From an uncultured virus (IMG/VR IMGVR_UViG_3300031111_000236) (Duplodnaviria; Heunggongvirae; Uroviricota; Caudoviricetes), in IMG/VR virus record IMGVR_UViG_3300031111_000236: a DNA stretch of 60,795 nt; one strand, 5' to 3'. The position numbers were made by a program, and so were the translations under genes. Positions 7,251 through 54,525 of this stretch are shown here, piece by piece. The notes beneath the pieces were generated by a model that worked only from the letters and a program-made list of their open reading frames with translations, searched no databases and had not been told where the DNA came from. How positions within the stretch are numbered: the stretch's first letter is position 1; the number at the start of each line of letters is the position of its first letter.

Positions 7251-7295
7251 TAGATGTCGCATACCGTGTCAGTCACGAACAATGAGGTGCATAAA

Positions 7296-10200: not shown

Positions 10201-10373
10201 ACTTCGACTTGGAGCATCTCTATGCTACCGTTTCGAGGATTGAGACTGGTGAATATGTATGGTATGTAGAAGACTTCACCTCTGGTAGTCCTTATGATGT
10301 AGAGACTGGCAATGGGTATTTGGTATATCTCTATGAAGATACGGGCGAGTTCTACATTAACACCACCGCATAG
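7296..10373 (+). CDS. large secreted surface glycoprotein, paralog 2
   Basis: Colinear with 4155-7202 (PTAWxNNTxPNxGEVELL, WLDEHPT, GWNLVSVP); SD GAGGTG upstream. Confidence 0.8.
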   Translation: MDNRVSTLFVVVLFLLSGLVLMSNQTDADLIEMTENGYIDEDVRDKGVPFPLGMEVSTFSGCFQAPTAWVNNTEPNIGEVELLYQYDDDGFFYVSWTNTSNEEDEETNLYTTEDPLYNYYVRYASTAVNCEYKYSLVGLGNNTMFLYNDTRLVAVYGSDTHDDYDTCHSTAIYIGDNTLAVILSNKRQNHGFMVYSIEISLFNMLTETPGTINNIITDTWEWNTDDYHRCISCEYQYDLLFFYVLDYERHYVFTLDPTVLSTRAPSHTVLWEGDYVPRDAMCSALRPLGEDEFECLTFITGEDGTRNLSRIKDNDIEEVNVFDPIVKDYFRWGYIGDSDDDSILFQFGSSNGRFFVECDWDFKAHSVYYIDSEDDTVYSRSSSNPTLLDDYIITNPRDGITPSVYNRVELGDEIELGEIFYYPERVSVGDENTDWYSDMVSVGQSENYTYPDESGVYFGLGYTDECNYVFFSIVNATALNTNRVSEVTLVQEQVIEGMIQPIDDVLGYSNSTVGELGGEMVYITSSAAEITRAMRPKHEVTIREADGTPITSTTLLYTDWLRPFYVAFVNETVYIMEAHYVDETRAPTTRTYTLTAHIWDGTEWEMDITISEYTYSGMFSGTIHNVYGKDGLLYIVNSTDYRDDEPVDVWTMTYNHDNGSLLKVGNFTLPRDYRVVSTRGNHSVMALQPDMGSGSIYIDEMEIEDGWIVSEGVVGINDNGSYFIWYVKDVGSGYLYYKAGDYENKTGFSLMKTPAGLKYSPPEILEEPQMYGEGELMGVAMISSPSLIWLDEHPTSIPEMKGSAIGGIHVSDSDIAYVLTYDTVVRRGTRAHVSEYTEVVSYLYMIDLGGWRVDDEGYTLNLREGWNLVSVPIEGLTSDDIFEQCEGDVTAFSMRHANGNYVMEIYYNTNRTIYNIAPSDGFYLFADRDFSVKILGEVVSNVSYNLSYGWNLIGAPYDYDVNVEDFKEDFDLEHLYATVSRIETGEYVWYVEDFTSGSPYDVETGNGYLVYLYEDTGEFYINTTA

Positions 10374-11171: not shown

Positions 11172-11945
11172 ATGAGTTGGTTCGGAGAAAAGATAAGACA
11201 CGGGCACAGTGCCCGTCGTATTCATAGTGATAAGTCGGTCAGTAGCTTTGTGAACAACAATCCGAAGGCTATGGTCTACTTTTCACAGGAGGGCTGTGGG
11301 GCCTGTCGTGCGACAGACCCTATAGTCGATAAGCAGTCCAAGAAGCGGAACGCTAAAGTCAAGAAGGTCAACCTTTCCAAGGTCAGTGTCAAGAATTTTC
11401 CTGGGGTCACGGCAACTCCTACCATAAGGCTGTACAAGGAAGGTAAACAAGCTGGCGAAATCGTGGGCGTTCCAGAAGATGCCGACTTCAAGGTTCTTGG
11501 TACAACGAGGTCTTCGAAGAAGCCCCGCAAGCCCTCTACCAAAGCTCATAAGATGGGGGGTGGTCCGAAAGTCAGCCCCAAGAAGGAGAGCATCCAGAAA
11601 ACAGGGTGTATCGGGTGCTCGTCCGCTCATATTGCAGGAGCAAGCTCCATGCTCAACGAGTCTATCAGGTTCGCTGACGCTGGTGGTGTATCCCATCCCG
11701 AAGTTGTAAGAAGACTTGTACTCGCTCGTGAGGAGATAGTAGCGATGGAGCGTATCGACCTCTCCGAAGAAGCTATAGCTAACTCTCCCAAGAGAGACCA
11801 AGAGCTTGCCGCTGAGTTCAAGCCCCGCATTAGGCTGGTACGTCAACACATTACAGGTATCAAGAGCGTGAACGACCTCAAGAAGACTGCCCGTGAAGCT
11901 CGACAGTTGAATATCGACTTTACCAAGGCCCAGATGGGGATATGA
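11172..11945 (+). CDS. thioredoxin-domain protein with divergent N-terminal RH tag and C-terminal CxxC helical domain
   Basis: YFSQEGCGAC and TPT cis-Pro motif; WFGEKIRHGHSARRI; CIGC. Confidence 0.75.
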   Translation: MSWFGEKIRHGHSARRIHSDKSVSSFVNNNPKAMVYFSQEGCGACRATDPIVDKQSKKRNAKVKKVNLSKVSVKNFPGVTATPTIRLYKEGKQAGEIVGVPEDADFKVLGTTRSSKKPRKPSTKAHKMGGGPKVSPKKESIQKTGCIGCSSAHIAGASSMLNESIRFADAGGVSHPEVVRRLVLAREEIVAMERIDLSEEAIANSPKRDQELAAEFKPRIRLVRQHITGIKSVNDLKKTAREARQLNIDFTKAQMGI

Positions 11946-12598
11946 TGGCTTGGGACGGCGAGAGTCAGAGACATCGCTTAGCTCGACGTGGTATTATCTC
12001 TATTGCCAACACACCAGACATACCTGACGACTACGAGCTGGTTGATGATTATTTTGGTAAAGTGGCTAAGCAACCGCCAGGCCGACTCCCAGAGTATCTT
12101 GGTCTTGGTAGAGACGGGTCATGGTCGTGGTACGAGAAGAAGCTCTTGAACCTGTCGGGCAATGACAATGCAAGCCCCGAGATGCAGAAGCTCGCCAAGA
12201 GTCTGGTCAAAGGTCATAGAACACAGAGAAAGAAACTCGAATCGGTCTATGCCCATGTCACGAGTGAAATTGATACCATATACCATCTTGAGAAGATGGC
12301 TGGTCGTATGTACAGGTTCCTCAAGGGTGATGCGGCATCAGTGTGGGATAGGCGTGGGTCCTCTGGTGAGGCTTGTCACACACAGAGTATTCTCATGAGG
12401 AGTATGCTGTTATCCAGTGGGTCCTTCAAACCAAACGAGGTCAAGTTCGCCTATCATTGGCACAACTCGATACCGCATACGTATCTGAAGGTGTACCTAC
12501 GTGATGAGCGCAAGTGGATAGCTGTGGACCCAATAAGACAGGACTATGTGAAGGGTGCTACCAAGAACCCCCTCTTGGCCCTCGGTAAACATTTATAA
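11942..12598 (+). CDS. transglutaminase-like (Cys-His-Asp) protein with RH tag
   Basis: GEAC...HTYLKV...WIAVDP triad spacing; N-terminal WDGESQRHRLARRGI. Confidence 0.7.
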   Translation: MMAWDGESQRHRLARRGIISIANTPDIPDDYELVDDYFGKVAKQPPGRLPEYLGLGRDGSWSWYEKKLLNLSGNDNASPEMQKLAKSLVKGHRTQRKKLESVYAHVTSEIDTIYHLEKMAGRMYRFLKGDAASVWDRRGSSGEACHTQSILMRSMLLSSGSFKPNEVKFAYHWHNSIPHTYLKVYLRDERKWIAVDPIRQDYVKGATKNPLLALGKHL

Positions 12599-12643
12599 AG
12601 GTTTCCCTGAACCTATTTATATTGTCTATTCAATCGTATCTTC

Positions 12644-13555
12644 ATGAACAAGCCGCAAGGCTGGAAAGGGGATTCTCTTCGGCACGGACTGGCCCGTCGT
12701 GGGATTGATACAAGCCGCCTGATGACTGACATCGGTATAAGGGATATCAATAGAGCCGTCGTTCAAGACGGGTATCTGCCCAACTATGATACACTCACTG
12801 GTAGGGGTCCATCTTTTGTACAAAACAGGTTTGGGATGGCGCAGAGATATTGTCGTATCATCAAGAACGACTTCGAGAGGGTGATGGCCAGGTACAACGC
12901 TAAGGTTGTTGACGTACCTGGAAGTCGAGAACTGGTCTACGAAATACAACCCCCCTCTTGGAAGAAAGATAACCTTTCGGTCCTCGTATACTCAAGCATC
13001 ATTATGACAGGACAGGCCCGTGACTGTGGTGACGATGCTATCAGGGTTGTTGCAGTTCTTGACCATGACCCGAAGAAGATAGTATCGGGCAGGACGAAGA
13101 CGCTACGTATTGATTCCTGGGAGAAGAACCTCACTGCCAAAATAGACGACCTCTTGCAGTACGAACCTGTGACCTGCCCGAGATGTGGCTCTATGATGGT
13201 AGTCAGGACTAATAAGAGGACGAAAGAGAAGTTCATGGGGTGCTCTCAGTGGCCCAAGTGCTCACAGACGATGCCTATCAAGAGGCGTGATACATCGCTA
13301 CAACCGAAGAAGGCCCCCGCTGTCCGCAAGAACAATCCAGTAATTAGAAAGCACCAAGAGCAGATTATCAGAGACTTCTGGGACTACGAGAACATGATAA
13401 AGAGTCTCGACGACGCTATGAAGGACGGACGGCTCTCATACGACGAGAAACAGTGGTTACAGCGATGGGCGAGTCGGGAGTACGGGAAGTACTTGAAAGA
13501 CCCGAAGAGCTACGAGAGGGTACATTCCTTTGCGCACAGGGGGAAACGTAGATGA
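12644..13555 (+). CDS. RH-tag protein with topoisomerase-type C4 Zn ribbon
   Basis: CPRCGSMMVVR...FMGCSQWPKC; N-terminal GWKGDSLRHGLARRGI. Confidence 0.78.
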   Translation: MNKPQGWKGDSLRHGLARRGIDTSRLMTDIGIRDINRAVVQDGYLPNYDTLTGRGPSFVQNRFGMAQRYCRIIKNDFERVMARYNAKVVDVPGSRELVYEIQPPSWKKDNLSVLVYSSIIMTGQARDCGDDAIRVVAVLDHDPKKIVSGRTKTLRIDSWEKNLTAKIDDLLQYEPVTCPRCGSMMVVRTNKRTKEKFMGCSQWPKCSQTMPIKRRDTSLQPKKAPAVRKNNPVIRKHQEQIIRDFWDYENMIKSLDDAMKDGRLSYDEKQWLQRWASREYGKYLKDPKSYERVHSFAHRGKRR

Positions 13556-14511
13556 GGGGTAGAGGGTGGTTGGGTGACTCTGCAAGGCACTCGCTCAGTC
13601 GAGCGGGTATTCCTAATTCCTTCGGGTATAAGAAGGACTTTGTTACTTTTAGGAAGAAGGAGTGGCACGATGATTACCCAGACCCCGACCCTAAGAAGGC
13701 AAGAAAGGAGGTTAAGAAGAAGACATTAGATTTACAGGCCCTCATGGTGAACCCTGCCAGAGTAGAGGAAGAGCGTGATAAAATCACGGTCTATTTGCCT
13801 GATGACGAAGTGATGTATAACTTTAGCACGAGGTACGACGACAAATACAATGATTGGGATATCGACCCAGACTTTCTTCTTGACACAGAAAGACCAGCTT
13901 ACTACTTACTCATGATTACATATGGTAGACCAGAGGTAATCAAAGAGAATCAGGACCTTCAGGACGCTTTGATGATATCGATTATGAACCGACTCAGGAA
14001 CAAGAAGGACTATAAGTTCTGGTTTGACGGTAGCTGGATGTTTCTGGACGGCTTATCAATGGATAACAAACTGTTATTGTTGCCAAAACTATTGAGTCAT
14101 CTCAAGAGGGTAAGCACTCTACAGATGTGGTACAGAAATCAAAAGTACGAGGACCTTATTCAGATGTCTCTCGTAGGGGAGAGCGAAGAAGGAATACGCT
14201 TGCTATCGCACGTTCTCAAGGGTCATGAGTCATTTTTCGGCTTACCCACACGCTACATAGAGAACTTTGCTAAGGACGCTCGTGACATGACGGGTATGTA
14301 CGTCTACAACAAGGATGCAGACTTCATAATATATGCGCCAGTACCTAACGTTGATAATGAGGCGAGGGCGAAAGAGCTTTTCGAGAGGTGGACAGTACCT
14401 GCTCTCCAAGCCTGGAAAGGCGAAAAGTTGAAGGCGTACCTACCAAATATAGAGAACAAGTATGCCAGACAGATGGTAATCAAATACCTGGGTCTCAGGG
14501 TGGGAGCATGA
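13552..14511 (+). CDS. RH-tag protein, DIxPDFLLD family member 1
   Basis: GWLGDSARHSLSRAGIPNSFGY; DIDPDFLLD; DLQDAL. Confidence 0.8.
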   Translation: MRGRGWLGDSARHSLSRAGIPNSFGYKKDFVTFRKKEWHDDYPDPDPKKARKEVKKKTLDLQALMVNPARVEEERDKITVYLPDDEVMYNFSTRYDDKYNDWDIDPDFLLDTERPAYYLLMITYGRPEVIKENQDLQDALMISIMNRLRNKKDYKFWFDGSWMFLDGLSMDNKLLLLPKLLSHLKRVSTLQMWYRNQKYEDLIQMSLVGESEEGIRLLSHVLKGHESFFGLPTRYIENFAKDARDMTGMYVYNKDADFIIYAPVPNVDNEARAKELFERWTVPALQAWKGEKLKAYLPNIENKYARQMVIKYLGLRVGA

Positions 14512-15464
14512 AAACAGGGTGGACCTCGGACCCCGTGAGACACGGACTTGCCGCAAGAGGCATCAGTAACTTTGCCTACCGCCAGAACTTCATAGTGCAC
14601 GAGCCGAGAAAGACAGACGAGTTCACTGATAAGACCCAAGTTCTTGTCAATCTCTACAATAAGAAGATATACGACCTGATGCTCGACCCACAGAGGGTAG
14701 AGAAGCAGAAGGGGGAAATCAAGCTCATCATGCACCAGAAGACTTTCGAGAATTTCGACAAGGACTTCAAGCCTAATCTCGCTGGCAAGGATATACAACC
14801 AGACTTCCTGTTGGATGCGGCCAATCCTGGTGTTACGTTTTTTCTTGTCACTGGTGGGGACATGGGTATGGTCAGAAGTAATCCCGACCTACAGGACGCT
14901 CTCGTGATAAACTTGCTCCAGGGTATGGAAAAGTGGGGGCCGTATGAGGTCACTCACAGGGACTGGTACTATACAGATGGTCTCCCGTTCAGTACTAAGC
15001 TGGTAGTCCTACCTAAGATGCTCAAGAATCTCTTGTCCAGTAACTTGTATTCCGATGTATACAAGAACAAGACCATGCACTCCCTCTTGGAACAGGCGGC
15101 GGCTGGTCACTCGGAAGAAGAGGCTCAAGTGATACTGGACATTTTCAAGAGAGAGGCGGCTAAACACAGAAAGAAGCACGTCGATGAGAGCTTCAAAATA
15201 CTGGACTCCTACGAGCACATAGTCAAGGACGCAAAGGACCTCAAGATAGCCTATTTCTATTCCAACTTATCGACCTTGAGAGGCATGAGCTACTATACAA
15301 TACCAACAAGTGATGACAAGGACAGGTGTAGAGAGCTTTTGGATAGGTGGGGAGGCAAGCGTGCCAAGCTATTCTACGGCCCACTTGCGGAGGACGTGTA
15401 TTACAACCCAGAGTACTCGATGACTCCAACCACGGAGGCGTTGCTACGTGACTTGGCCGACTAA
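14508..15464 (+). CDS. RH-tag protein, DIxPDFLLD family member 2
   Basis: ATGA overlap start at 14508; GWTSDPVRHGLAARGISNFAY; DIQPDFLLD. Confidence 0.8.
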   Translation: MKTGWTSDPVRHGLAARGISNFAYRQNFIVHEPRKTDEFTDKTQVLVNLYNKKIYDLMLDPQRVEKQKGEIKLIMHQKTFENFDKDFKPNLAGKDIQPDFLLDAANPGVTFFLVTGGDMGMVRSNPDLQDALVINLLQGMEKWGPYEVTHRDWYYTDGLPFSTKLVVLPKMLKNLLSSNLYSDVYKNKTMHSLLEQAAAGHSEEEAQVILDIFKREAAKHRKKHVDESFKILDSYEHIVKDAKDLKIAYFYSNLSTLRGMSYYTIPTSDDKDRCRELLDRWGGKRAKLFYGPLAEDVYYNPEYSMTPTTEALLRDLAD

Positions 15465-16458
15465 CCCTATAAGGCATGGCCTCTCGGCTCGTGGTATTAG
15501 GAGCTTTGCCTATCGTGAGGGTTTCATCGAAACGAGGAACATCGATGATAAGTGGCTTGATGAGAATTTCCACCTGAGATATCCTCGAAGGCATAACGAA
15601 AGCCTATTCAAACTGTTGACAGAGCCAGAGGAAGTGGAGTCACGAGCCTTCACAGACAGTGCTACTGGTAAGCTACATGGCGGAATCATAGTGAGTCGTC
15701 ACCCCGACGTGTTTGAGGACTTCAACAAGAAATATGGTGAACAGATACAAAGCGGTGAGCTTGATATAAAACCAGACTTTATGCTGGATGCCGATGACCC
15801 TGTATCGCTCTTCTTCATGGTGACCAACGGTGACATGGAACTTGTGCGTAGGACACCTGACCTTCAGGACGCTCTTGTAGCGTCTATTCTCAAGCGTGTC
15901 CGTGATGGTGATTATAATCGGATTTACTATTATCTTGACAGTCTTCCCACCGAAACTAAGATGTACCTCTTGCCCAAGATGATTAACGCAATCATAGATG
16001 ACCGACGAATTGAGAGGATAGTGAAAGAGACCCTCTTGAGGGGGATGTACGTCACTTCTACTGTTGGACACTCGCAAGATGACGTGGAGGTTCTGCTGAA
16101 GCTCTACAAACAGATAATGAGGAGGAAACTCAAGGCTGTCGATGGGTGGGACCTAACGGGTATATTCACACTCTGGGATTGGATGCCTTACGATGCGAAG
16201 GACATAGACATACTCTATGCTTACGAGAACAGAGCCAATATGCACTCTATAAACTACTACGTGCTTCCGACTTCCAAGAGCCGCCCGAGGGGTCGTGAAC
16301 TCTTGGATAGGTTGGGAACCTCTTGGGACGTTGATAGAGTACACAAGGCTTACAAGGACAACCTCTACTATGATAGGAGCCTCCCGCAGAATAAGAAAAT
16401 GCTCAACAGGACGACTAAGTTCCTACTCGATGAGAGGGGCAAGAAGGGGTGGTCTTGA
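15448..16458 (+). CDS. RH-tag protein, DIxPDFLLD family member 3
   Basis: TWPTNPIRHGLSARGIRSFAY; DIKPDFMLD. Confidence 0.8.
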   Translation: MTWPTNPIRHGLSARGIRSFAYREGFIETRNIDDKWLDENFHLRYPRRHNESLFKLLTEPEEVESRAFTDSATGKLHGGIIVSRHPDVFEDFNKKYGEQIQSGELDIKPDFMLDADDPVSLFFMVTNGDMELVRRTPDLQDALVASILKRVRDGDYNRIYYYLDSLPTETKMYLLPKMINAIIDDRRIERIVKETLLRGMYVTSTVGHSQDDVEVLLKLYKQIMRRKLKAVDGWDLTGIFTLWDWMPYDAKDIDILYAYENRANMHSINYYVLPTSKSRPRGRELLDRLGTSWDVDRVHKAYKDNLYYDRSLPQNKKMLNRTTKFLLDERGKKGWS

Positions 16459-17372
16459 TGGGATGGCCCAAGAGTCCACTCAGGCACGGTCTATCAGGAA
16501 GAGGTGTCAAGAGCTTCGCCTACAAGCCCAACTTCGTTAGCTACTCACTGCCGCCTCGCTCAGAGGAAATGAGACTCAACGCTGTGATTAATCTGCACGA
16601 CCTCATGCTCACACCTACGAAAATAGAGCAGGAGCACGACAGCATAGCTCTCTATCTCAACTTGGCTGATATGAATAGGTTTGACAAGACCTTTGGTGAA
16701 AAGCTCAGGGAAGATGATATTCAGCCAGACTTTCTTCTTGATGCGGCTCCGAGAGCGTCTCCCCTCTTGTACTTCGTGACAAACGGTAGCAGGAAGCTCT
16801 TCGAGGTGAACGACTCGCTCAGGGCCTCTGTAGTTGTCTATATGCTCACTGTTATGGACGACCCTAAGTTCTGGTCCAATAATGACTATGTGTACTTCAA
16901 TGTGTTAACACCTGATGAGAAGATAGTGCTACTCCCCAAGATGCTACGGAGAGTGGCCGCTCTTGACCCTGGTAATAGGGGCACTATTCTCAAGGACCTC
17001 TACATACTGTCAGTGGCTGGTATGAGCGTAGAGGATAAGAACGTTTTCCTGAAGACGCTTAATAAGGCTGTTAGCGAACAGAAGCAGAACATAGCTAACT
17101 CCCTGTCCCTCGACACTATGGCCGATGCTGTCCGCAAGATGGACACCCAGGACATGAAGGTCTTCTACTACATGACCAAGAACGGTAAGCTCGGGTGGAG
17201 TCTCCTACCAGACACAGATGACCTGGAGCACTTCTTATACCTTGTGGAGCAGACGGGGACCAACCTCTTGGAAGAAATCAAGTACGGGCAGATTCATTAC
17301 AACTCTTCTGAGCTACCGAGCTTCTTCCAGAGTCAGGAGTACGAAGAGCTTCTGGAAGATTTAGCTATATAA
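16458..17372 (+). CDS. RH-tag protein, DIxPDFLLD family member 4
   Basis: TGATG overlap; GWPKSPLRHGLSGRGVKSFAY; DIQPDFLLD. Confidence 0.8.
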   Translation: MGWPKSPLRHGLSGRGVKSFAYKPNFVSYSLPPRSEEMRLNAVINLHDLMLTPTKIEQEHDSIALYLNLADMNRFDKTFGEKLREDDIQPDFLLDAAPRASPLLYFVTNGSRKLFEVNDSLRASVVVYMLTVMDDPKFWSNNDYVYFNVLTPDEKIVLLPKMLRRVAALDPGNRGTILKDLYILSVAGMSVEDKNVFLKTLNKAVSEQKQNIANSLSLDTMADAVRKMDTQDMKVFYYMTKNGKLGWSLLPDTDDLEHFLYLVEQTGTNLLEEIKYGQIHYNSSELPSFFQSQEYEELLEDLAI

Positions 17373-17428
17373 GGGTTCTCATTAACCGTTAAATACAATG
17401 ACTACACTCTCATCCAATAGGTGATGAT

Positions 17429-17686
17429 ATGGCTGACTTCGGAATACTTGGCCTGACCTTTGGACTGGCATACTCTGTCGTGTACCTGGCTCTTCTCGTG
17501 TTGAGAGTAGTACTTGTACCCTCGATAACGATAAGCGCATACAGGAACGGCAGGAGCGTGCTGTTCTGGGGTATCTTAGCCATGATAGTACCCATAGTTG
17601 CCCTCGTCTGCTTCATGTTCCTTGGGAACGAGAAGAAGAGGGACGTGTGCTACGCATGGAAGGACTGTGCCAAAAAGGGAAAGTAG
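17429..17686 (+). CDS. small membrane protein
   Basis: Two hydrophobic helices; basic tail with a Cys pair; GGTGAT SD. Confidence 0.7.
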   Translation: MADFGILGLTFGLAYSVVYLALLVLRVVLVPSITISAYRNGRSVLFWGILAMIVPIVALVCFMFLGNEKKRDVCYAWKDCAKKGK

Positions 17687-17701
17687 AACCCATACCACAC
17701 G

Positions 17702-17947
17702 GTGGTACGCATGGCGAGGAAGAAGCAAGAGGCGTGTCTAATTCGACATCCGAAAGGACACTGCCTGGACGATAACATATTGAACACGGTCATAGTGTTC
17801 ATTGGCTGGATTATAGTCACCGTTTCTGGTGCTATAGTACTGGCCGCTGTCATAGCTTTCGTCCCTCTTAATGTCTGGACCATACTCACTGCATTTGCTG
17901 TGATGTTCTTCGGGTTCCTCCTGACCCAAGTCGGTATCAAAGACTAA
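17702..17947 (+). CDS. small membrane protein
   Basis: Two hydrophobic helices. Confidence 0.65.
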   Translation: MVRMARKKQEACLIRHPKGHCLDDNILNTVIVFIGWIIVTVSGAIVLAAVIAFVPLNVWTILTAFAVMFFGFLLTQVGIKD

Positions 17948-17958
17948 CAGGTGGTCAT

Positions 17959-18657
17959 ATGGCCTTCGATAATGAACCTCTGAGACACGGACTATCAAGA
18001 CGGGGTATTCCCCATAGCAAGAGCTTCGCTCAGAGTCCTGCCTGTCCTGTGGACAGTATAGGACTACACTGCAATGTACCAGATTCGCAGTTCGACCCGA
18101 GACAGCTACAAACGGGCATACGTATCGAGATGGAGGAGCACACGAAGAATCCTGTGGTCGCCAAGGAGATAGCTAAGGACCATCTCTCAGAGCACCCTGA
18201 TTACTACTCGTGGCTTGTTGAGATGGAGATGGCGGCGGCGGCGACCAATACCTTCAAGAAGCTCGTAGCGTCTCAGGACACCAGCAAGTTCGAGAAGAGT
18301 AACCAGAACCCCGTAAGCCCACCGAGACAGGCCCCTCCGCAGGACTTGGCCTTCGGTTATGCGACATTGCCTAAGTACAAGGGCGGCTCGGGTGCGGGGA
18401 AGCTCAAGGTCGGTAAGAAGGTCACTAAGCCCTCGCAGTTCAAGGTTGGTGAGACCTATATTGCCGTGAGCAACCAGTTCAAGAGCATCAATGTGATGAA
18501 GGTCAAGGAGAGGAGTGACGGCCCGTCAAAGGGTGTTATGGCCGTCTTCGTGGACCCCAATGACCCGAGGAAGAAGCGTCTGAGCGACGATAGGGAGTTC
18601 TTCATACACGACTTCCAGTTGAAGTATGACGAGGACGTGTACTACGAGGTTAGGTGA
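17959..18657 (+). CDS. RH-tag protein with DUF5661-like domain and a second C-terminal domain
   Basis: FDNEPLRHGLSRRGI..SFA; GIRIEMEEH..AKEIAKDHLSEHPDYY. Confidence 0.75.
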   Translation: MAFDNEPLRHGLSRRGIPHSKSFAQSPACPVDSIGLHCNVPDSQFDPRQLQTGIRIEMEEHTKNPVVAKEIAKDHLSEHPDYYSWLVEMEMAAAATNTFKKLVASQDTSKFEKSNQNPVSPPRQAPPQDLAFGYATLPKYKGGSGAGKLKVGKKVTKPSQFKVGETYIAVSNQFKSINVMKVKERSDGPSKGVMAVFVDPNDPRKKRLSDDREFFIHDFQLKYDEDVYYEVR

Positions 18658-18866
18658 CACTCTTGGATTTTATTGCCATAATAATGTTCTTTTTAGCCTT
18701 TGTTACTGGACTGGCGAGTATATTTTTCTTTATCCTGAGTATTGTCATGTTTAAAAAGGTTCGCCCATTGAGGGGGACGTTATTCATGGTTGCGAGTGTT
18801 TCCCTGTACGTTACTCATGCTGTGATTATGGTACTGTATGTACTGGCTGACTATTTCAGTAGCTGA
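18654..18866 (+). CDS. small membrane protein
   Basis: Two TM helices; GTGA overlap. Confidence 0.65.
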   Translation: MTLLDFIAIIMFFLAFVTGLASIFFFILSIVMFKKVRPLRGTLFMVASVSLYVTHAVIMVLYVLADYFSS

Positions 18867-28865: not shown

Positions 28866-30128
28866 ATGGCTGTGATAGTGATACCGAAGGCAGGGCGAGG
28901 CGTGTCGAGAGCTATGCTGGACCAGATGTATATAGACTTCTCCGACCAGCTCAAGAGGTTGCAGAGACAGATAGGTTTCAGGATATCTGCCCGTGGTTGG
29001 TGCTACATCATGGAGCAGAACGGTCTTATCAATAAGGACCAGTTCGACCTTGTGAACAATGCCATCAACAACTGCCGTAAGAAGGGATACCTACCTGTGG
29101 ACTTTACAGCCGAGGAGTCGGCCCGTCAGTTCAAAGGCGTGGAGGAGCCTACCACGGAACCGCCTGGCGTGTGGCTTAGAGACTATCTAAACTACATATT
29201 CAGGTGCGAGAACACGTACATACCTGAGTGGTGGGCCGACGAGGAGTACTACATACAGATGGTAGTGGAGAAGGTGGACTTGGTGACCCTGTTCCGTCCT
29301 ATCTGCGAGAAGTTCCATATCCCAATAGCAAACGCTAAGGGGTGGTCCTCTATATCTCAGAGAGCAGAATACGCTCGCCGCTTCAAGGAGGCTGAAGCAA
29401 ATGGTCTCAAGTGCGTCCTCTTGTACTGTGGTGACCATGACCCTGATGGTCTCCGCATAGGCGAGTTCCTGCGTAAGAATCTTGCCGACATCAAGGACAT
29501 CACATGGAACGATGGTGAGGACGGCTACGACCCTGTTGACCTGGAGATAGACAGGTTCGGGCTTAATCACAGTTTCATAGCGACCAATGGGCTGACGTGG
29601 ATAGACAATCTCATCACAGGCTCGGGCAAGAATCTCGCATCACCAACCCACCCGAACTACGACATGGAGTACGTACAAGAGTACCTCAAGAGGTACGGTG
29701 CTCGCAAGTGTGAGGCGAACGCCATCGTTCAGAACCCAAAGGCTGGTCAGGACCTGTGCCTACAGGCCATTGAGAAGTACCTCGGCACGAACGCAGAGGC
29801 AAGGTTCCAGGTTAAGATAGATAGGGTGCGTGAGTGGATAGAGGAGTATCGTCAGAAGCTCGGGATAGAGCATCATCTCACCAATGCTATAGGTGAAATC
29901 AACAAGGGCGAGGCCCAGAGACTCCCCGTTCGATGCCCCTCTTGTGATTTTGTGTATGGGGATAAAATGTATGACCAGATGGTAGCCGACGACGAGGAGG
30001 AGTGCCCCGAGTGCGGTGCGTACCTTTTGGCTGAGTGTTCAGGGTGCGGCAAGAGGCTCCGCACGGACCTTGAGGACGTTACTGGTCTTGAGGAGTGTCC
30101 CTTCTGCGGAAAGTACAGCCCTGTCTGA
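28866..30128 (+). CDS. Toprim protein of Topo VI A/Spo11-like type with C-terminal Zn ribbons
   Basis: SARGWCY, VVEK, KGWSS, YCGDHDPDG, EANA; four CxxC at the C-terminus. Confidence 0.75.
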   Translation: MAVIVIPKAGRGVSRAMLDQMYIDFSDQLKRLQRQIGFRISARGWCYIMEQNGLINKDQFDLVNNAINNCRKKGYLPVDFTAEESARQFKGVEEPTTEPPGVWLRDYLNYIFRCENTYIPEWWADEEYYIQMVVEKVDLVTLFRPICEKFHIPIANAKGWSSISQRAEYARRFKEAEANGLKCVLLYCGDHDPDGLRIGEFLRKNLADIKDITWNDGEDGYDPVDLEIDRFGLNHSFIATNGLTWIDNLITGSGKNLASPTHPNYDMEYVQEYLKRYGARKCEANAIVQNPKAGQDLCLQAIEKYLGTNAEARFQVKIDRVREWIEEYRQKLGIEHHLTNAIGEINKGEAQRLPVRCPSCDFVYGDKMYDQMVADDEEECPECGAYLLAECSGCGKRLRTDLEDVTGLEECPFCGKYSPV

Positions 30129-30196
30129 TTCTGATATATAAGAGTTAGCCTATCAATATAAATAGGACCGCTACTGTGTTTGTAGTGGTGGTCCAC

Positions 30197-31666
30197 GTGG
30201 TCAAGAGCAAGGGCTTTACAGACAATCCGAGCAGACACTCTCTGAACGCCAGGGGTATCCCTAACCAGACTTTTGCGCAGTCGAGTCGAGACCAGAGCAA
30301 GGAGGTTCTCGCTCAACTCTTGGACGAGAGCAACTGTGGCTGGTTCTCACACAAGAGAGATAACCTGGCTAAGGAAGCCGATGGCTGGAGAAAGCGTGCG
30401 GTCCGTGAGACCGATAAGGTGGCCAAGCAGAGGTTCTTGGACAAGGCCGAGTCTTATGATGACTCTGTTGCGATGGTCAACGAGGTCATGATAGAGGGCG
30501 GCTGTGGCCCTCAGTCTTTTGGGAGTCTCGCAGTCAAGGACCCTACGAGGCCCGATGAGCACAACCACACGCTGTTTCTTGACCCGTGGGAGATAGGCGA
30601 ACTCGAAGCATCTGGGAAGCCTATCGATAGTTCTAATCCCAAGGAAGAGGTCAACATCCTGGTATACAAGTTAGACCAGGACATAATCGGGAAGATGAAG
30701 CCCGAGCACGTTGCGCAACTGAACGACTCAATTAAGAGGGAGATAGCCACTCTTGAAAGGACGGGTAAGGACCCACGTCGCCTGAAGTATCTCAAGAACT
30801 TCCAGACTGGTGTCGAAGCCGAAATGCAAAAGCACTCGTCTCAAAGGTCTTTCGCCAGTCTTACCGTGGATAGGACGAGTGCCATTGGCGGTAAGAGCAC
30901 TGTTGTTTTCCTGGACGACCAGGAGATAGACAAACTCAAAAGGGGACGCTTCGTGCGCAGTATCAACGAGCGTGACCATGTGGGTGCTATGGTAATACCT
31001 CTTACCGATGCCCAGATAAAACATCTCGACGGCGACCAACTGAAGCAGTTGCGCAAGGAGATTAACAAGGAGAAGCACTTCAACGAGAAGAGCGATGCTC
31101 GTGTTGCCGAGAACAGGGACAAGTTCTTGGAAGAGCTGGACAGCAAGGTGGTAGCGGAGTTGAAGAAGCGCAATATCACCCCACCACGTGGTTTTAAGAT
31201 GGCTCAGTCCCAGAGGGGATGCGGTCAGGTCATTATCAGCGGCGACAAGATAACTGTCACGGACGAGAGCGGAGTCGAGATTCGTCATTGGGAGAAGGAG
31301 GACTGGCAAGACAATCCAAACCTCGTACCCAGGATGGTGGACGACAGCATCAAGGCTTCGCACTGCTCGCTCCCTGGCCAGCGGTCCTTTGGGATGCCGC
31401 TCCCGAAGCGTGGACGTGATAGGGTTAGGAAGGTTACCCACTACCCCCAATCAAACAGAGTCGTTGTGCAGGACGCAGGGCGGCAGAAGTTCGAGGAGAA
31501 GAGTGTGGGTCTCTTGGCTCTAAGACCTTTCTCCGTGGAGAAACAGTCACCGAAAAAGGGAACTAAGGTTCACCTGGTCTATCATGAGAGTCAGAACGCC
31601 GAGTGTGAGCGGACGAAGATAGACGGCGACGACGTTGTATTCTGTCAGCCGAAGAGGAAGAAATAA
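30197..31666 (+). CDS. RH-tag multidomain protein (putative polyprotein)
   Basis: GFTDNPSRHSLNARGIPNQTFA; internal QSFG, RSFA, RSFG; duplicated domain. Confidence 0.8.
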   Translation: MVKSKGFTDNPSRHSLNARGIPNQTFAQSSRDQSKEVLAQLLDESNCGWFSHKRDNLAKEADGWRKRAVRETDKVAKQRFLDKAESYDDSVAMVNEVMIEGGCGPQSFGSLAVKDPTRPDEHNHTLFLDPWEIGELEASGKPIDSSNPKEEVNILVYKLDQDIIGKMKPEHVAQLNDSIKREIATLERTGKDPRRLKYLKNFQTGVEAEMQKHSSQRSFASLTVDRTSAIGGKSTVVFLDDQEIDKLKRGRFVRSINERDHVGAMVIPLTDAQIKHLDGDQLKQLRKEINKEKHFNEKSDARVAENRDKFLEELDSKVVAELKKRNITPPRGFKMAQSQRGCGQVIISGDKITVTDESGVEIRHWEKEDWQDNPNLVPRMVDDSIKASHCSLPGQRSFGMPLPKRGRDRVRKVTHYPQSNRVVVQDAGRQKFEEKSVGLLALRPFSVEKQSPKKGTKVHLVYHESQNAECERTKIDGDDVVFCQPKRKK

Positions 31667-31671
31667 CTGAG

Positions 31672-32748
31672 GTGGCCCTCTTGGGATGGCCAAAGGACCC
31701 CGCACGACATAGATTGTCTTCACATGGCATCCAGTCCAGGCGTGCCTTTGGGTATAGCAAGGATTTTGTGAAGGTTATTCATGACGGTAGCCCCGACGAC
31801 AGGAACACCAAGGAACAGCATAGGGAGCTGTGGCTTCTAATGCGTGACCCTGAGAGCGTTGAGGACGCATGGAGTCCATTCTCGGTACATATCAACAAGG
31901 GCAACATGGCCGAGTTCGCCAAGTGGTCCAAGGACAAACAGAACGATGATACCTACCTCTTGAAGGACGTGGATATGGAGCCTGATTTTCTACTTGATGT
32001 CTCTCGCAAGACGAAAAGGATTAAGTCTGGAAATTCACCACCTTTTGTCACCTATCCTATCCAAGAGGAACCTCTCACGCAACTTCTCATCTTTCATACC
32101 ATTAACGGAGATTCCGACACTATCAAAGACAATGCTGGCTACCGAGAAGCAGTACTACTGAATATGCTTGATGAGAAGAAGAAGTTCGATGAGGCCGAGG
32201 ACACTATCGATTTCTATCTTGGTAAGCACTACTACTTCCTCGACACTCTATCCGCAGAGGAGAAGGTTCTGGCCTTGAAGTATATCCTCCCCAAGCCAGA
32301 GCTTCTTATAAGCGCAGACAGTAATCATTCATACATTATCGCTGACCTGATACAGATGACCTTTATGGGTCTGAAAGACGAGGCTGTCGAGTCACTACGA
32401 ACGACGTTCAAGAGGTACATCGGTGACATGAACAACTATCTTGGTCCGAAAGTACCGAGACGACACAAGGAACGGGACGAGCTTCTTGAACTGATGGATA
32501 TAAGTATCAAGCATAAGGACGACCTTGTGAGTTTTTATGCCTACGCTCCACAACAAAAGAAGGACGGCACTTTTGAGCGTGAGTTCGAGTACTTCGTAAT
32601 GCCCAAGGAGCCCCAGAAACAGTATGGGGAGTTCAACCCAATTTACTCGGACTGTAACTACATCATCTACGCTCCGAAGGGTTGGGTATACAACCGCAAG
32701 TACCATAAGTACATCAAGGCCGAGCGTGCCCACAGAAGGTTGAAATAA
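31672..32748 (+). CDS. RH-tag protein, DIxPDFLLD family member 5
   Basis: GWPKDPARHRLSSHGIQSRRAFGY; DMEPDFLLD. Confidence 0.8.
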   Translation: MALLGWPKDPARHRLSSHGIQSRRAFGYSKDFVKVIHDGSPDDRNTKEQHRELWLLMRDPESVEDAWSPFSVHINKGNMAEFAKWSKDKQNDDTYLLKDVDMEPDFLLDVSRKTKRIKSGNSPPFVTYPIQEEPLTQLLIFHTINGDSDTIKDNAGYREAVLLNMLDEKKKFDEAEDTIDFYLGKHYYFLDTLSAEEKVLALKYILPKPELLISADSNHSYIIADLIQMTFMGLKDEAVESLRTTFKRYIGDMNNYLGPKVPRRHKERDELLELMDISIKHKDDLVSFYAYAPQQKKDGTFEREFEYFVMPKEPQKQYGEFNPIYSDCNYIIYAPKGWVYNRKYHKYIKAERAHRRLK

Positions 32749-33038
32749 TGGCACTCGAAGAGACACTCGGGGACCTCTGTCTGATATTCCTGTTCACGAT
32801 TTTCATAGGCGTGTTCCTCATTGGAGGTGTGTGGGGCCTTGTGCTTCTCAGCCTGTTGAACACGTACCCCTACCTATGGGCGGTCCTTATCGCCCTCAAG
32901 GTCATCATCGGTATGTACTCCTTCGCACGTATGCACTCTATATCCAAGAACAGAGTAGCATGGCTCTTCATAGGGTACTTTTTCCCATTGCTATCACTGT
33001 TCCTGGTCTGGTACTACCGCAAGCAAGAGGGCCTCTGA
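32748..33038 (+). CDS. small membrane protein
   Basis: Three hydrophobic helices; TAATG overlap. Confidence 0.7.
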   Translation: MALEETLGDLCLIFLFTIFIGVFLIGGVWGLVLLSLLNTYPYLWAVLIALKVIIGMYSFARMHSISKNRVAWLFIGYFFPLLSLFLVWYYRKQEGL

Positions 33039-50721: not shown

Positions 50722-51288
50722 ATGAGCAAGCCGAAAGGTTTCACTGATAACCCAGAGCGTCACAGACTCAACAGTGCTGGAATCCCGAATAAGACGGCCT
50801 TTTCTGCCCCTCAGCTACCTCCAGTCAAAACAGGTTTACCAGCGAGAGGTGTCTCACCCAAGCGTTCCGAGCGTAAGCAACCGCCGTTCGCAGAGAAGCA
50901 GTTGTCCGAGGTTGAGAAGATGGCTCGTGAAATGGTTGGTGATGGTGGGGACCCGAACAAGTTCTTCGTGTCTATCTACAGCGACTATGACTACATCCAC
51001 GAGGACGAGGACGGGGCTATGGCTCAGGAAGGCATCGACGACCTGATACCAGGCTTCGAGGGGAAAGGCGGGACTGTCAAGATGTTCGACTCTTGGAGCG
51101 AGGCCAAGGAGTACATAGAAGATGGATACGCCTATCTTGGCATGAAGGAGGACGACTTCATCGTGAACAGGATTGTGGTCGAGGACCGCAAGAACGGGGT
51201 CATCTATGAGCAGGTCAAGCTCTTCAACCCCAAGAACGGGACCATGAGAGAGGACATCCGTGATGACAGTGGGTGGCTCGACGAGTGA
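50722..51288 (+). CDS. RH-tag protein
   Basis: GFTDNPERHRLNSAGIPNKTAFS; AGGTGAT SD. Confidence 0.8.
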   Translation: MSKPKGFTDNPERHRLNSAGIPNKTAFSAPQLPPVKTGLPARGVSPKRSERKQPPFAEKQLSEVEKMAREMVGDGGDPNKFFVSIYSDYDYIHEDEDGAMAQEGIDDLIPGFEGKGGTVKMFDSWSEAKEYIEDGYAYLGMKEDDFIVNRIVVEDRKNGVIYEQVKLFNPKNGTMREDIRDDSGWLDE

Positions 51289-51299
51289 GGTGTTAGACA

Positions 51300-51569
51300 A
51301 TGGCGAAAAAAGGACAAATATGCAACCAACCGAACAAGTGGTTCTGGCTTGGTAACCCGCTCTTACTGTTCGGGTTGCCCCTGCTTTTCGTAGTGGGAGC
51401 TGTGGGACATAACGTCGTCTACGCTATCAACGAGATGGTAGGCGGGAACCTCGCTCTTGAGATACTTGAGGGTGCGCTCTTCCTTCTCGCAGTACCCTTT
51501 GCTCTGGTGTGGTTCGTGATAGCTATCATATACACCATCGTCAAGAGGGGGAGGTGTGGTTCATGGTAA
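51300..51569 (+). CDS. small membrane protein
   Basis: Two TM helices. Confidence 0.65.
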   Translation: MAKKGQICNQPNKWFWLGNPLLLFGLPLLFVVGAVGHNVVYAINEMVGGNLALEILEGALFLLAVPFALVWFVIAIIYTIVKRGRCGSW

Positions 51570-51769
51570 AGGAGGGTGGGTGGAAGAAGACCATCACGGC
51601 CCTTACGTTCATCGTGTTGGGACTGTTCGCTGTCATTACAGCGACTATACTCATCGGGGCCGACATCCTGGGGGACGTGTTCAGATACCTGCTACCTTGG
51701 GGCCTGGTACTCTTGGGCATCTTTTCGGCGATAGGGTTCACCGTTGCACTGAAGGATAGGAAAAGATGA
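51563..51769 (+). CDS. small membrane protein
   Basis: Two TM helices; GGAGGTG SD. Confidence 0.65.
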   Translation: MVKEGGWKKTITALTFIVLGLFAVITATILIGADILGDVFRYLLPWGLVLLGIFSAIGFTVALKDRKR

Positions 51770-51773
51770 TATC

Positions 51774-52694
51774 ATGAAAGCGAAAGGCTTCCCAGGTAAC
51801 CCTGTGAGACACTCATTGTCTTCCAGAGGTATTCACAATCGGGTTGGGGTGTTCGCCACACCACAGTCACGACAAGAGATTATCAACGCTTTCAACTTCG
51901 CTGTCAAGTACAACGAGCAGATGCGTGAGAAGGTCAAAGACATCAAGGTGAAGTACTACAGTCAAGGTAACCTCTTGAGCAATCCTGTTGATAGTCTTCT
52001 GATAGATGATAAGCTGGAAGAAAGGCGGCCAAGGGTACTCTACGAACTGGTACAGGATATGTTCAGAGAGAAGGGTATAGAGAACATCAATGTACATGAC
52101 TCCGACATGAAACCTCTCATGGACCTCTTGGAGCAGAACGGGTATCCAGAGGAGCTGAACTTCAGAATAATCGAGAACTGGATAGACAGAACGTATGTCC
52201 AGAGGTCTGACGATTTTGCATTGAAAAACCTTACCAGCGTCGCTGACGGCGGCCTGTACGGGAGGTATAGCACCGCCAGTGTACAGAGAACAGATGGTTT
52301 TGGTAAGAAAGTTCCCACTTTCAGGACTGGCTCAAAGGCTAACTTCAGGATTTACAACGAGGACAGCTCGTGGGGTACACCCAGGATGAAGTGGAGCGAG
52401 GTTGACAAGCTGAGGGCTATCGAGAAGCTCATCCTCCTGACGTTCGATAATAGGCTCGACCCGAGTGAGGATATACCGACTGACATAGCCCGTATGTACG
52501 ATACGCAGTACAGGGACCCAAAGCCTGTGACACCTCATGACAAGCACTCTGTATCCCCGAGCACGAGGATAGGCAAATACGTCGAAGCCGTGAAGTGGTA
52601 TAAGAACAACAAGTTCGAAATCATCTTCAGGAGCGAAGACATGGCCAGGAAGGTAGAGGAGCGTTTCAAAGTCCTCTTCCCGAACAAGTTCTGA
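51774..52694 (+). CDS. RH-tag protein, IEKLIL family member 1
   Basis: GFPGNPVRHSLSSRGIHNRVGVFA; IEKLILLTFD; SPSTRIGKYV. Confidence 0.8.
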   Translation: MKAKGFPGNPVRHSLSSRGIHNRVGVFATPQSRQEIINAFNFAVKYNEQMREKVKDIKVKYYSQGNLLSNPVDSLLIDDKLEERRPRVLYELVQDMFREKGIENINVHDSDMKPLMDLLEQNGYPEELNFRIIENWIDRTYVQRSDDFALKNLTSVADGGLYGRYSTASVQRTDGFGKKVPTFRTGSKANFRIYNEDSSWGTPRMKWSEVDKLRAIEKLILLTFDNRLDPSEDIPTDIARMYDTQYRDPKPVTPHDKHSVSPSTRIGKYVEAVKWYKNNKFEIIFRSEDMARKVEERFKVLFPNKF

Positions 52695-52706
52695 GGACGT
52701 TAGACA

Positions 52707-53588
52707 ATGACAGGATTCCCAGGCGACCCGAATAGACACGCCCTATGTTCGAAGGGTATATCCAATCAGCCTGGGGTATTCGCATCTCCGCAGTTCCGAG
52801 CAAACATGGCCAAAGCCTACAACGATATTCAATTTCATGACTCCGAGATAGACCGTATTATCAAGCTCTACGGCGATATGTACTATAGGGATAATCCGAA
52901 ACAGAACCCGCTCCTCTTGAAACGAGACGGTGCACCAGATGAGTTCAAGTCGAATGTGATAAGTGCCATTGCTAATGACTTTGTAGATGATAATCCAGAC
53001 GCTATACCTCTCGGGGAGTCGGGAAAGGTAAATGACCTTCTTGACCTACCTGTGGACGGCAATAGAATAGAGGCGTGGCTTCAGGATACTCTTGTTACGA
53101 AGGCGGACGACGTAATGATGGGGAACATCAAGGTGGATGCAGAAAAGATACTCTATGGTGTGTATCGCAAGGGCTATGGCGTATCGCCACGTCCGAAGTT
53201 CCGTGATGACGATACAATCGTGCTCCGTGCTACTGGTACAAAAGACCTCAACAACAAGATAGCCATGAGTTGGTACGCTCAAGAGGGTATCGATGGTATA
53301 GAGAAGCTAATCCTCATGGCTTTTGACAAGAGGATAAGTCCCGCAGACCCTTTCGGTAAGCTGGTGATGCGGGATATCTATCGTCACTACATTGGTTATA
53401 GGAGAGCATACGCACCGCACCAGATATCGCCTTCTACCCCTGTTGGTAAGTACGTTAGTAAGGTAGAGTGGGACGGTGATGAGTTACGTGTCACGTTCAG
53501 AAGCATCGATATGGCCAAGCACTTCGAAAAGGAGATGTGGGAGCTGTATCCTGACAAATTCAAAACTGCGAGATTACCAGGGAGATGA
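52707..53588 (+). CDS. RH-tag protein, IEKLIL family member 2
   Basis: GFPGDPNRHALCSKGISNQPGVFA; IEKLILMAFD; SPSTPVGKYV. Confidence 0.8.
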   Translation: MTGFPGDPNRHALCSKGISNQPGVFASPQFRANMAKAYNDIQFHDSEIDRIIKLYGDMYYRDNPKQNPLLLKRDGAPDEFKSNVISAIANDFVDDNPDAIPLGESGKVNDLLDLPVDGNRIEAWLQDTLVTKADDVMMGNIKVDAEKILYGVYRKGYGVSPRPKFRDDDTIVLRATGTKDLNNKIAMSWYAQEGIDGIEKLILMAFDKRISPADPFGKLVMRDIYRHYIGYRRAYAPHQISPSTPVGKYVSKVEWDGDELRVTFRSIDMAKHFEKEMWELYPDKFKTARLPGR

Positions 53589-53592
53589 AATC

Positions 53593-54525
53593 ATGAGCGG
53601 CAAGAAGAAAGGGTTCACAGACAACCCATTGACACACGGACTGAACGCACGTGGTGTACCCAACCAGAGAGCGTTCGCTAACAAAGCAGGAGAGTGGGAA
53701 CCAGAGATGAAACCCGTCACCGTTACGTTCACAGGGGACGACATAAAGAAGATAAACCCCGTTTTCAGGGACGTAATGGGTATGGATTTTGACAGTCGCT
53801 TTCATGGAGAGCTTGCGGACACATATAGTGAAAGCCACAAGAAGCTCAAGGCTATAGAGAAGGTGGCCAGCTTCAGTGGATACCCGTTCGAAGAGGAGTG
53901 GAAAAAGGAGTTTGGGAACGTCTTTGGGTATGCTGATAACCCTGCCGCCTACATGACCGATGAGTACAGGGTCAACACCCGCAAGTTCCTTGAGACCAGA
54001 GACAATGCCGCTCTCAAGGCTCTCAAGAGGTCGGTCATCAAGAACATGAAGAGTCACCCTGACAACAACGTCCTCATGACCAAGCACATCGTGGACATCG
54101 GTCTCATTGACGAGATACTACAAGAGCGTGGCGAGTCTACCGATGTCGAGGGTAGCAAGGACTTCATCAAGATGTCCGAGACCTTCAAGAAGGAAGGAGC
54201 CGCCTTCGCCTCCCCACAGGTCTTTGCGTCCGCTGAGATGAAAGGGTGGGAGAAGAACAAGGTAGTCGAGATGGACGAGGAGGACATCGAAATATTCGAT
54301 GCCAAGACCCAGAAGATGATACGCAAGTACATGAAGAAGGGCGACCTCTACTATATGTTCGGCTTCCTGGTCTTCGAGGACGACAAGTCTCTGCGCATAG
54401 TTGGCGAGAACGACTCCTACGACAAGTACACCATCAGGATGAGAACCAAGAACTTCGACAAGGTGTATGACCGTCTCGACGGGGCCGATGGTGGGGTCTA
54501 CGCTACAACAGAGGGCTGGAAGTAG
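53593..54525 (+). CDS. RH-tag two-domain protein
   Basis: GFTDNPLTHGLNARGVPNQRAFA; internal AAFASPQVFAS. Confidence 0.8.
   Translation: MSGKKKGFTDNPLTHGLNARGVPNQRAFANKAGEWEPEMKPVTVTFTGDDIKKINPVFRDVMGMDFDSRFHGELADTYSESHKKLKAIEKVASFSGYPFEEEWKKEFGNVFGYADNPAAYMTDEYRVNTRKFLETRDNAALKALKRSVIKNMKSHPDNNVLMTKHIVDIGLIDEILQERGESTDVEGSKDFIKMSETFKKEGAAFASPQVFASAEMKGWEKNKVVEMDEEDIEIFDAKTQKMIRKYMKKGDLYYMFGFLVFEDDKSLRIVGENDSYDKYTIRMRTKNFDKVYDRLDGADGGVYATTEGWK

Follow-up and report, generated by a model that had tools for sequence, protein, structure and literature searches.

Introduction

Shared terminal labels allow viruses and cell compartments to load a range of different proteins by a single route, encapsulin cargo peptides, for instance, being terminal cargo-loading peptides that stay on the protein, and to our knowledge few such shared labels have been described apart from those of phage T4 and related phages. 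The internal proteins of T4 carry a capsid targeting sequence (CTS), reportedly described by Mullaney and Black in 1996 (J Mol Biol 261:372). Two described systems in which short motifs are cut are also close to our subject. The gp245 prohead protease of SPN3US is reported to cut giant-phage head proteins at several copies of one motif (PMC10052503), and PMC9405229 reports that the leader of ribosomal protein L27, the substrate of Prp, ends in Q-(F/L)-F'A-(S/H) and is cut between F and A, with Prp reported from bacterial phyla. Here we describe open reading frame (ORF) 30197 of a 60,795-nucleotide stretch of DNA from the uncultured virus record IMGVR_UViG_3300031111_000236 (IMG/VR), the product of which opens with a peptide tag found on 14 ORFs of the stretch and repeats the tail of that tag inside its chain.

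The stretch, referred to below as the window, represents 60.8 kb of a 184,795-bp contig and holds 83 ORFs, which we designate by their start coordinates; the element carrying it is probably an uncultured mobile element or virus of archaea. The original prediction, made from the letters of the window, was that ORF 30197 encodes a tagged polyprotein with SF[G/A] sites at its domain boundaries, one tag importing a string of small effectors that are then released by cleavage. The shared tag, the modular chain and the tag-tail-like motif at the joints were all borne out by our analysis, whereas import and cleavage gained no direct support: no protease was seen in the 60.8 kb of the window, our searches returned no orthologs of the protein, and a single module recurs elsewhere. 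The reading that we favour is that of a modular tagged protein acting as one chain, to which we would assign a probability of roughly 0.5.

A peptide tag on otherwise unrelated proteins

The tag is a peptide of ~20 residues with the core G[WF]xxx[PS]xRHxLxxRG[IV] that opens 14 window ORFs, all of which were matched by a tag profile hidden Markov model (HMM) at E-values of 2.4e-14 to 1.9e-10, as against 0.23 for the best match in 41 unrelated loci. The N-terminal tag of ORF 30197 occupies residues 1-27 (30197..30277, + strand; HMM E-value 1.4e-11), with the core at G6-I21 (GFTDNPSRHSLNARGI) and the tail at N23-A27 (NQTFA), and the next gene, ORF 31681 (31681..32748, + strand), is tagged as well. 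The first tagged-gene cluster lies at 11172..18657 on the + strand (starts at 11172, 11945, 12644, 13552, 14508, 15448, 16458 and 17959, the last being set apart from the others by two small membrane ORFs), and the third at 50722..54525, also on the + strand (starts at 50722, 51774, 52707 and 53593).

By all-against-all BLAST the tagged ORFs contained a paralog family A (13552, 14508, 15448, 16458 and 31681) and a paralog family B (51774 and 52707), and the remaining seven, ORF 30197 included, had nothing in common but the tag. Recognisable bodies were a thioredoxin, a Top1-type zinc ribbon and DUF5661. Members of family A (13552-17372 plus 31681-32748) are 304-355 aa long and 24-35% identical, with an invariant F-[AG]-Y-x3-F right after the tag (F22, Y24 and F28). 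The DNA of the tag varies freely at synonymous positions among copies, and it is therefore the peptide level that is kept. None of the tagged ORFs has a hydrophobic segment (a 19-residue stretch with a Kyte-Doolittle mean of at least 1.6) and the tag itself is polar and basic; a Sec or Tat signal peptide was ruled out because the tagged ORFs have no hydrophobic core. No family library that we searched covers the tag, and full-text literature searches with tag strings, and likewise with DUF7447/DUF5661 strings, found no paper.

Outside the window, species genomes were searched with a degenerate DNA pattern of the tag and metagenome contigs with a stricter one. A metagenome-assembled genome (MAG) labelled as an uncultured euryarchaeote held 22 tagged ORFs on four short contigs and was the sole tag holder among 401 genomes sampled from its phylum, and a MAG labelled Thermoplasmata held one tagged 128-aa gene, located in an integrase-bounded island of ORFans that also includes a DNA methylase and adjoins ordinary cell genes. 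The metagenome contigs yielded 110 stretches on 100 loci with 444 tag hits, corresponding to 214 distinct tagged ORFs; in 183 of the 214 the tag started 12 or fewer residues from the nearest upstream M. Relatives tagged at the N-terminus (n = 179) had a median length of 148 residues and a maximum of 313, which leaves ORF 30197, at 489 aa, longer than all 179 and the longest known member. Their consensus is M-x-K-K-G-W-[RK]-[RK]-E-P-A-R-H-[SA]-L-A-A-[RK]-G-[IV]-K-T followed by a basic linker, with the W, R, H, L and G of the tag invariant in all 179. An F[AG] follows the tag in 5 of the 179 relatives only; as judged from this comparison, the F[AG] tail is special to the element studied here.

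The tag stands at the C-terminus in five relatives (P0022, L076:124-297 and one ORF each in loci L188, L216 and L193; proteins of ~60-220 aa), and tag-only mini-ORFs of 26-29 aa were present in L265, L205 and L202. On one 111-kb metagenome contig we found 36 consecutive tagged genes (102-265 aa) on one strand over ~18.9 kb (L213:3286-19865 and L191:8294-10636), with the tag M..KKGW..EPARH.LAA.G.KT and, beside the row, an archaeo-eukaryotic primase (AEP), a Cas4-like nuclease, a Rad51-like ATPase, MazG and an integrase. Known body domains among the tagged relatives were DUF7447, Prok-JAB and Mor, the latter two in the 36-gene row. Searches of deposited phage and archaeal-virus genomes with the tag and with the whole ORF 30197 protein gave no match, and in IMG/VR the tag pattern gave 3 chance matches and neither of the proteins P0020 and P0002 turned up. 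Taken together, the tag family seems to be undescribed.

ORF 30197 as a single gene

ORF 30197 runs from 30197 to 31666 on the + strand and encodes 489 aa plus a stop (31664-31666) in one continuous frame. The ORF listing begins it at its first GTG, at 30176 (30176..31666, + strand, 496 aa); we consider GTG 30197 the better start, since a GGTGG lies upstream of it and the tag then opens M-V-K-S-K-G-F as in the paralogs. This Shine-Dalgarno-like GGTGG (30187..30191, + strand) is 5 nt upstream of the GTG, and the tagged genes have GGTG(G/A) or GGAGG 5-10 nt upstream of their starts. The in-frame codon-usage score of ORF 30197 was 0.282 bits per codon, compared with 0.333 +/- 0.075 for 40 other genes, and the other two frames scored negatively for every module of the protein. 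An antisense ORF at 30728..31450 scored 0.111 against the 0.282 of ORF 30197 and is taken for a shadow.

It is highly improbable that the long ORF is an artefact, whether because an error of assembly or of frame has fused several genes or because internal starts yield separate products. In favour of an artefact, M400 does come directly after the third internal copy of the tail motif, but the same 489-residue protein was called identically on three separate assemblies, the single frame has uniform codon usage, and no Shine-Dalgarno motif was seen before residues 109, 220 or 400. An internal translation start at M400 was rejected, there being no ribosome-binding site. By these measures ORF 30197 is a real single-frame gene. 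A search of sequencing runs with it listed one DNA run, probably the source, and no RNA run.

Modules, duplication and relatives of ORF 30197

The protein is supported as a chain of at least five modules, all coordinates below being on the + strand. Structural descriptions come from a single-sequence AlphaFold model of low confidence (mean predicted local distance difference test (pLDDT) score 47). Behind the tag comes module N (residues 28-104, 30278..30508), a helical hairpin or bundle with predicted helices at 25-41, 44-70 and 74-100 (pLDDT 61-94). Joint 1 (residues 100-109, EGGCGPQSFG, 30494..30523, with F108 at 30518) leads into repeat R1 (residues 105-215, 30509..30841), which has a weakly modelled first part and a helical hairpin at 155-216. 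Repeat R2 (residues 216-335, 30842..31201) opens QRSFASLTV, with F219 at 30851, and has predicted strands at 221-224, 234-239 and 265-268 and helices at 279-291 and 302-324. It is followed by module M3 (residues 336-394, 31202..31378), a small strand-plus-helix unit, by joint 4 (residues 394-399, GQRSFG, 31376..31393, with F398 at 31388) and by module C (residues 400-489, 31394..31663), which has a basic start and predicted strands near its end. The joint between R2 and M3 (residues 336-344) is without an SF[GA] motif. We also observed that three of the six cysteines, C103 (30503-30505), C342 (31220-31222) and C390 (31364-31366), lie a few residues from module joints, in the contexts GGCGPQ, RGCGQ and SHCSLPGQ, one of them at the joint without SF[GA].

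The segments following SFG and SFA had been noted to resemble each other, and this likeness proved significant: the Smith-Waterman score of R1 against R2 was 84 compared with 30.0 +/- 5.2 for shuffled sequences (0 of 1000 shuffles reached it), a repeat test gave 84 compared with 28.5 +/- 5.1 (0 of 500), and HMMER paired the two as well. R1 and R2 are spaced 333 nt apart, and a remnant of the duplication is still visible in the DNA, where 20 nt at 30588 and at 30921 are 80% alike. By these comparisons R1 (105-215) and R2 (216-335) are a true tandem duplication of 333 nt, and two of the three internal sites are thus copies by descent, so that the three sites represent two independent events. No relationship was detectable between other pairs of modules, and module C was rejected as a third copy of the repeat (z of 0.1 and 0.6 against the repeats).

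A word-indexed search of 5.8 billion clusters matched the protein only to itself, and an HMMER search of 1.84 billion representatives matched it to itself and to the 156-aa protein P0002 (E-value 9.4e-4) and to nothing else. P0002 holds two copies of a ~55-residue unit matching residues 345-398, i.e., M3 (BLASTP E-values of 2e-07 and 3e-07 for the two halves). The expectation that the segments would turn up as separate genes or in shuffled order thus came true for M3 alone, as a tandem pair, while modules N, R1, R2 and C had no relative in the 1.84 billion representatives or in 28,760 ORFs of fetched loci, tagged relatives included. Searching these 28,760 ORFs with each module and with an M3 profile returned only ORF 30197 itself and one weak echo. 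On locus L031, a contig labelled Nanohalarchaeota, a 98-aa + strand ORF starting at ~12185, ~1.1 kb downstream of a relative of the topoisomerase-like gene that precedes ORF 30197, weakly echoes the M3 motif W-x-[DE]-N-P-N-x-[LV]...DD, with an E-value of 0.12 from a small database that may reflect chance. The ESM Atlas gave no usable match to the whole protein or to residues 216-335, and a sequence search of the PDB with the protein and with the tag profile gave nothing below E = 1.

The tag tail recurs inside the chain

The F codons of TFA, QSFG, RSFA and RSFG lie at 30272, 30518, 30851 and 31388, each where the original reading had put it and all in the single frame of ORF 30197, and encode residues 26, 108, 219 and 398; the motif [QR]SF[GA] accordingly occupies residues 106-109, 217-220 and 396-399. 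The motifs pointed out in other tagged ORFs were likewise present: LAFGY of ORF 17959 corresponds to residues 130-134, past its DUF5661 domain (43-90), AAFASPQVFAS of ORF 53593 to residues 203-213, and VFATPQ and VFASPQ follow the tags of ORFs 51774 and 52707, respectively. In 11 of the 14 tagged ORFs the tag ends in F plus A, G or S, 2-6 residues past G[IV] and preceded by S, T, A, V or N. With the first 35 residues of each tagged protein set aside, the pattern [KRQ][STA]F[GA] occurred 4 times in the remaining 3,738 residues of the tagged set, and not once in the 69 + strand ORFs that have no tag (14,655 residues).

A position-specific scoring matrix (PSSM) was trained on the 11 tag-end 8-mers alone, among which are 5 + 2 paralogs, and scanned over 17,811 other + strand protein positions, 20.4% of them in tagged proteins. 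Its top five hits all fell in tagged proteins, namely ORF 53593 at 202 and 208 (overlapping) and ORF 30197 at 105, 216 and 395, with the joints at F108, F219 and F398 ranking third, fourth and fifth. The naive chance of this outcome is 0.204^5 = 3.5e-4, or 0.204^3 = 0.0085 with dependent hits counted once. The tail motif thus appears to be a real feature of the tag system of this element, its internal copies having modest statistical support.

These figures bear on the suggestion that the joint motifs serve no function in themselves, one copy having arisen by duplication and the others being chance occurrences or recombination relics at the tag tail. R1 and R2 do hold the motif by descent, the enrichment stands near p = 0.0085 once dependent hits are collapsed, for a motif that was picked after the fact, and a stretch MKGWEKNK after the internal motif of ORF 53593, which aligns to the tag start, hints at an old gene fusion. 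We nevertheless think this explanation unlikely: nothing in the repeats is better conserved than the motif, [KRQ][STA]F[GA] is absent from the untagged proteins, and no ORF with two tags was present among the 444 tag hits (214 distinct ORFs), from which it follows that fusions of tagged genes are uncommon. The MKGWEKNK stretch (54238-54261, residues 216-223 of ORF 53593) comes directly after the doubled tail motif AAFASPQVFAS and has no ribosome-binding site upstream; with its alignment to the tag start by the tag HMM, it may be a relic of a fusion between two tagged genes. Interpreting the internal sites of ORF 30197 as decayed whole tags was rejected, as the tag HMM aligns to nothing but the tail at these points and none of the relatives carries more than one tag.

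Placement of the sites in structural models

In the model of ORF 30197 the confident parts are helices at 25-100 and 155-214, and residues 1-29 have a pLDDT below 50. Mean pLDDT per ten residues before, at and after the sites was 74, 44 and 31 for site 1 (residue 108), 73, 41 and 31 for site 2 (residue 219) and 51, 30 and 25 for site 3 (residue 398). All three sites come after predicted helices and in short G/P/S/Q-rich stretches, with the flanks GGCGPQSFGS, HSSQRSFAS and SLPGQRSFGMPLP. VIA fold matches were to separate helical hairpins at 42-106 (Z up to 9.3) and 155-218, each ending at a site, but these scores (Z of 9.7 or less) are non-specific, the tool warning that such values are common for helical models. 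As far as the models tell, then, the internal sites sit at module borders, without distinguishing whether the F is free or packed, and the predicted placement of the sites in linkers between domains agrees with their composition, their position after helices and the drop in pLDDT, within a model of low overall confidence. A five-sequence model of family A was better (pLDDT 65.7, predicted template modelling score 0.68) and mostly helical, with the tag and the F-A-Y stretch unstructured (residues 1-23 with pLDDT below 50) and the fold beginning at a strand at 29-32; a Foldseek search of the PDB with this model gave no match at E <= 0.001.

Such a placement is what would be expected if ORF 30197 were a polyprotein, in which the tag would address the chain to its destination and a protease acting at [STAV]-F-[AG] would then remove the tag and part the modules at 108-109, 219-220 and 398-399 to give three to four products. 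In its favour, the motif ends the tag in most of the tagged window ORFs, away from the tags it is matched best at one joint of ORF 53593 and at all three joints of ORF 30197, and the joints come after helices, at the points where model confidence collapses; in the family A model, too, the tag and F-A-Y are unstructured ahead of a fold that starts at strand 29-32. ORF 30197 exceeds all 179 N-tagged relatives in length and its modules are cargo-sized, M3 exists separately in P0002, and the motif is strongly kept between R1 and R2. Precedents exist in giant-phage head proteins and Prp leaders (PMC10052503; PMC9405229). No protease family was found, however, in the 83 ORFs of the 60.8-kb window by Pfam or in 63 of them by PHROGs and NCBIfam, the window shows no HExxH or GDSGG-type site where its context would be plausible, and no capsid, portal or terminase was seen in it. 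Tag relatives lack the motif and some are tagged C-terminally, duplication of a single site accounts for two of the three internal ones, and the joint between R2 and M3 does without the motif. ORF 30197 had no orthologs in our searches, so that conservation of the joints has no comparison. We regard cleavage into separate products as possible but doubtful.

A proposed docking label on a modular protein

Returning to ORF 30197 as a single-chain modular tagged protein, we propose that the tag serves for docking or as an address, and that a single putative partner reads it on all of its bearers. This proposal follows from a tag that is invariant on unrelated bodies, stands at either end, has no hydrophobic core and occurs in mobile elements of archaea. 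It would be preserved as a peptide on bodies that differ from one another and number in the hundreds, whichever end it occupies. The body of ORF 30197 would comprise a helical hairpin, two copies of an alpha/beta-plus-hairpin unit, a small unit known elsewhere and a basic C-terminal unit, and would have grown by tandem duplication and module addition, such that a single tag could bring several modules to the reader at once. [STAV]-F-[AG] would be a short linear motif special to the element that closes the tag and recurs in linkers before three modules, where it might mark or stabilise the start of a cargo unit or add a second weak contact with the reader. It could have spread within ORF 30197 partly by duplication, and cutting would not be required. 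The C-terminal tags and the relatives without an F[AG] tail argue against a cleaved N-terminal leader as the general mode of the family.

Several points weigh against this interpretation. The tail motif recurs exactly at module joints and, by PSSM, only in tagged proteins, which a purely structural or accidental linker explains poorly. SF[GA]SL[AT]V is the best-kept stretch of R1 and R2, which are otherwise ~25% identical, and this points to constraint on the motif itself. A small-bulky-small pattern of residues is typical of protease sites. Finally, the structural model is weak (pLDDT 47).

Neighbouring genes in the window

Coding in the window is almost all on the + strand and the GC skew is positive throughout. 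Most of the 83 ORFs gave no family hit (Pfam on all, PHROGs and NCBIfam on 63); recognisable genes were radical SAM proteins, a helicase, a uracil-DNA glycosylase, an Ogg-type glycosylase, PTH2 and RtcB. No relatives of this RtcB were found, an Rfam scan of the window returned two tRNAs and nothing else, and PADLOC gave no match for the 21 proteins submitted. Directly upstream of ORF 30197 is a topoisomerase-like gene (28866..30128; phrog_6247, E-value 7e-77) with a C-terminal zinc ribbon, relatives of which (51-65% identity) were present on 23 viral contigs and 18 bacterial or archaeal genome contigs; the tag was absent from all 41 of these loci.

Seven of the nine small (up to 135 aa) predicted membrane proteins of the window directly adjoin tagged genes (17429-17686, 17702-17947, 18654-18866, 32748-33038, 51300-51569, 51509-51769 and 54538-54828), and the seven show no mutual sequence likeness (BLAST E > 0.03). 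Neither of the adjacent ORFs 4134-7202 (1022 aa) and 7254-10373 (1039 aa) matched a family, and in both the N-terminus carries a hydrophobic segment. They come after a protein resembling zinc-dependent phospholipase C, which is hydrophobic in segments at its two ends.

Comparison with described systems

Like the CTS of T4, the tag is a short N-terminal peptide common to unrelated proteins of one virus, in this case 14 ORFs. The CTS is followed by a protease site through which the label can be removed after delivery, whereas removal of the tag is only hypothesised here. The tag also differs in its sequence and its length of ~20 residues, the window yielded neither a capsid or scaffold gene nor a prohead protease, and five relatives depart from the N-terminal-leader mode by carrying the tag at the C-terminus, although all 14 tags of the window are N-terminal.

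The SPN3US cleavage motif differs from the SF[GA] of ORF 30197, and its protease is known, whereas none was found in our window. The two cases are alike in having one short motif repeated in a chain and common to many proteins of one virus, but the SPN3US cuts, self-cleavage of the protease apart, give N-terminal propeptides that are cleared rather than functional modules (PMC10052503).

Prp is said to act on phage 80alpha capsid proteins as well as on its ribosomal substrate. Its leader resembles the tails found here (Q-T-F-A-Q, Q-R-A-F-A-N, Q-R-S-F-A-S and P-Q-S-F-G-S), but the full MLxx(D/N)LQ(F/L)F'A(S/H)KK (PMC9405229) does not occur in our tails: the likeness is confined to Q-x-F-[AG]-[SQ], outside which the leaders are unrelated. 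Pfam gave no Prp-like family for the window, and the tag holders here are labelled archaeal.

Encapsulin cargo peptides resemble the mode that we favour in that a short peptide stands at either end of unrelated cargo, with one partner and no need of cleavage; they differ in that no shell protein or other partner is known here and in that the tag sequence is unrelated. We know of no arrays of dozens of tagged genes in encapsulin-type systems.

Should the tail indeed be processed, ORF 30197 would belong to an address-and-cut system of archaeal mobile elements, with a terminal label, a small-F-small processing tail and a cargo polyprotein in a prokaryotic DNA element, which we raise only tentatively. 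One tag would then deliver several cargo modules that are cut apart at copies of the tag tail after delivery. As the tail recurs inside its long chain, ORF 30197 is the best single test case for label removal and for several cargoes per label. The tag is kept near letter for letter across small proteins of uncultured archaeal elements that are unrelated to one another, number in the hundreds and can be encoded by as many as 36 genes in a row, and ORF 30197 is the single member in which the tag tail recurs inside a long chain.

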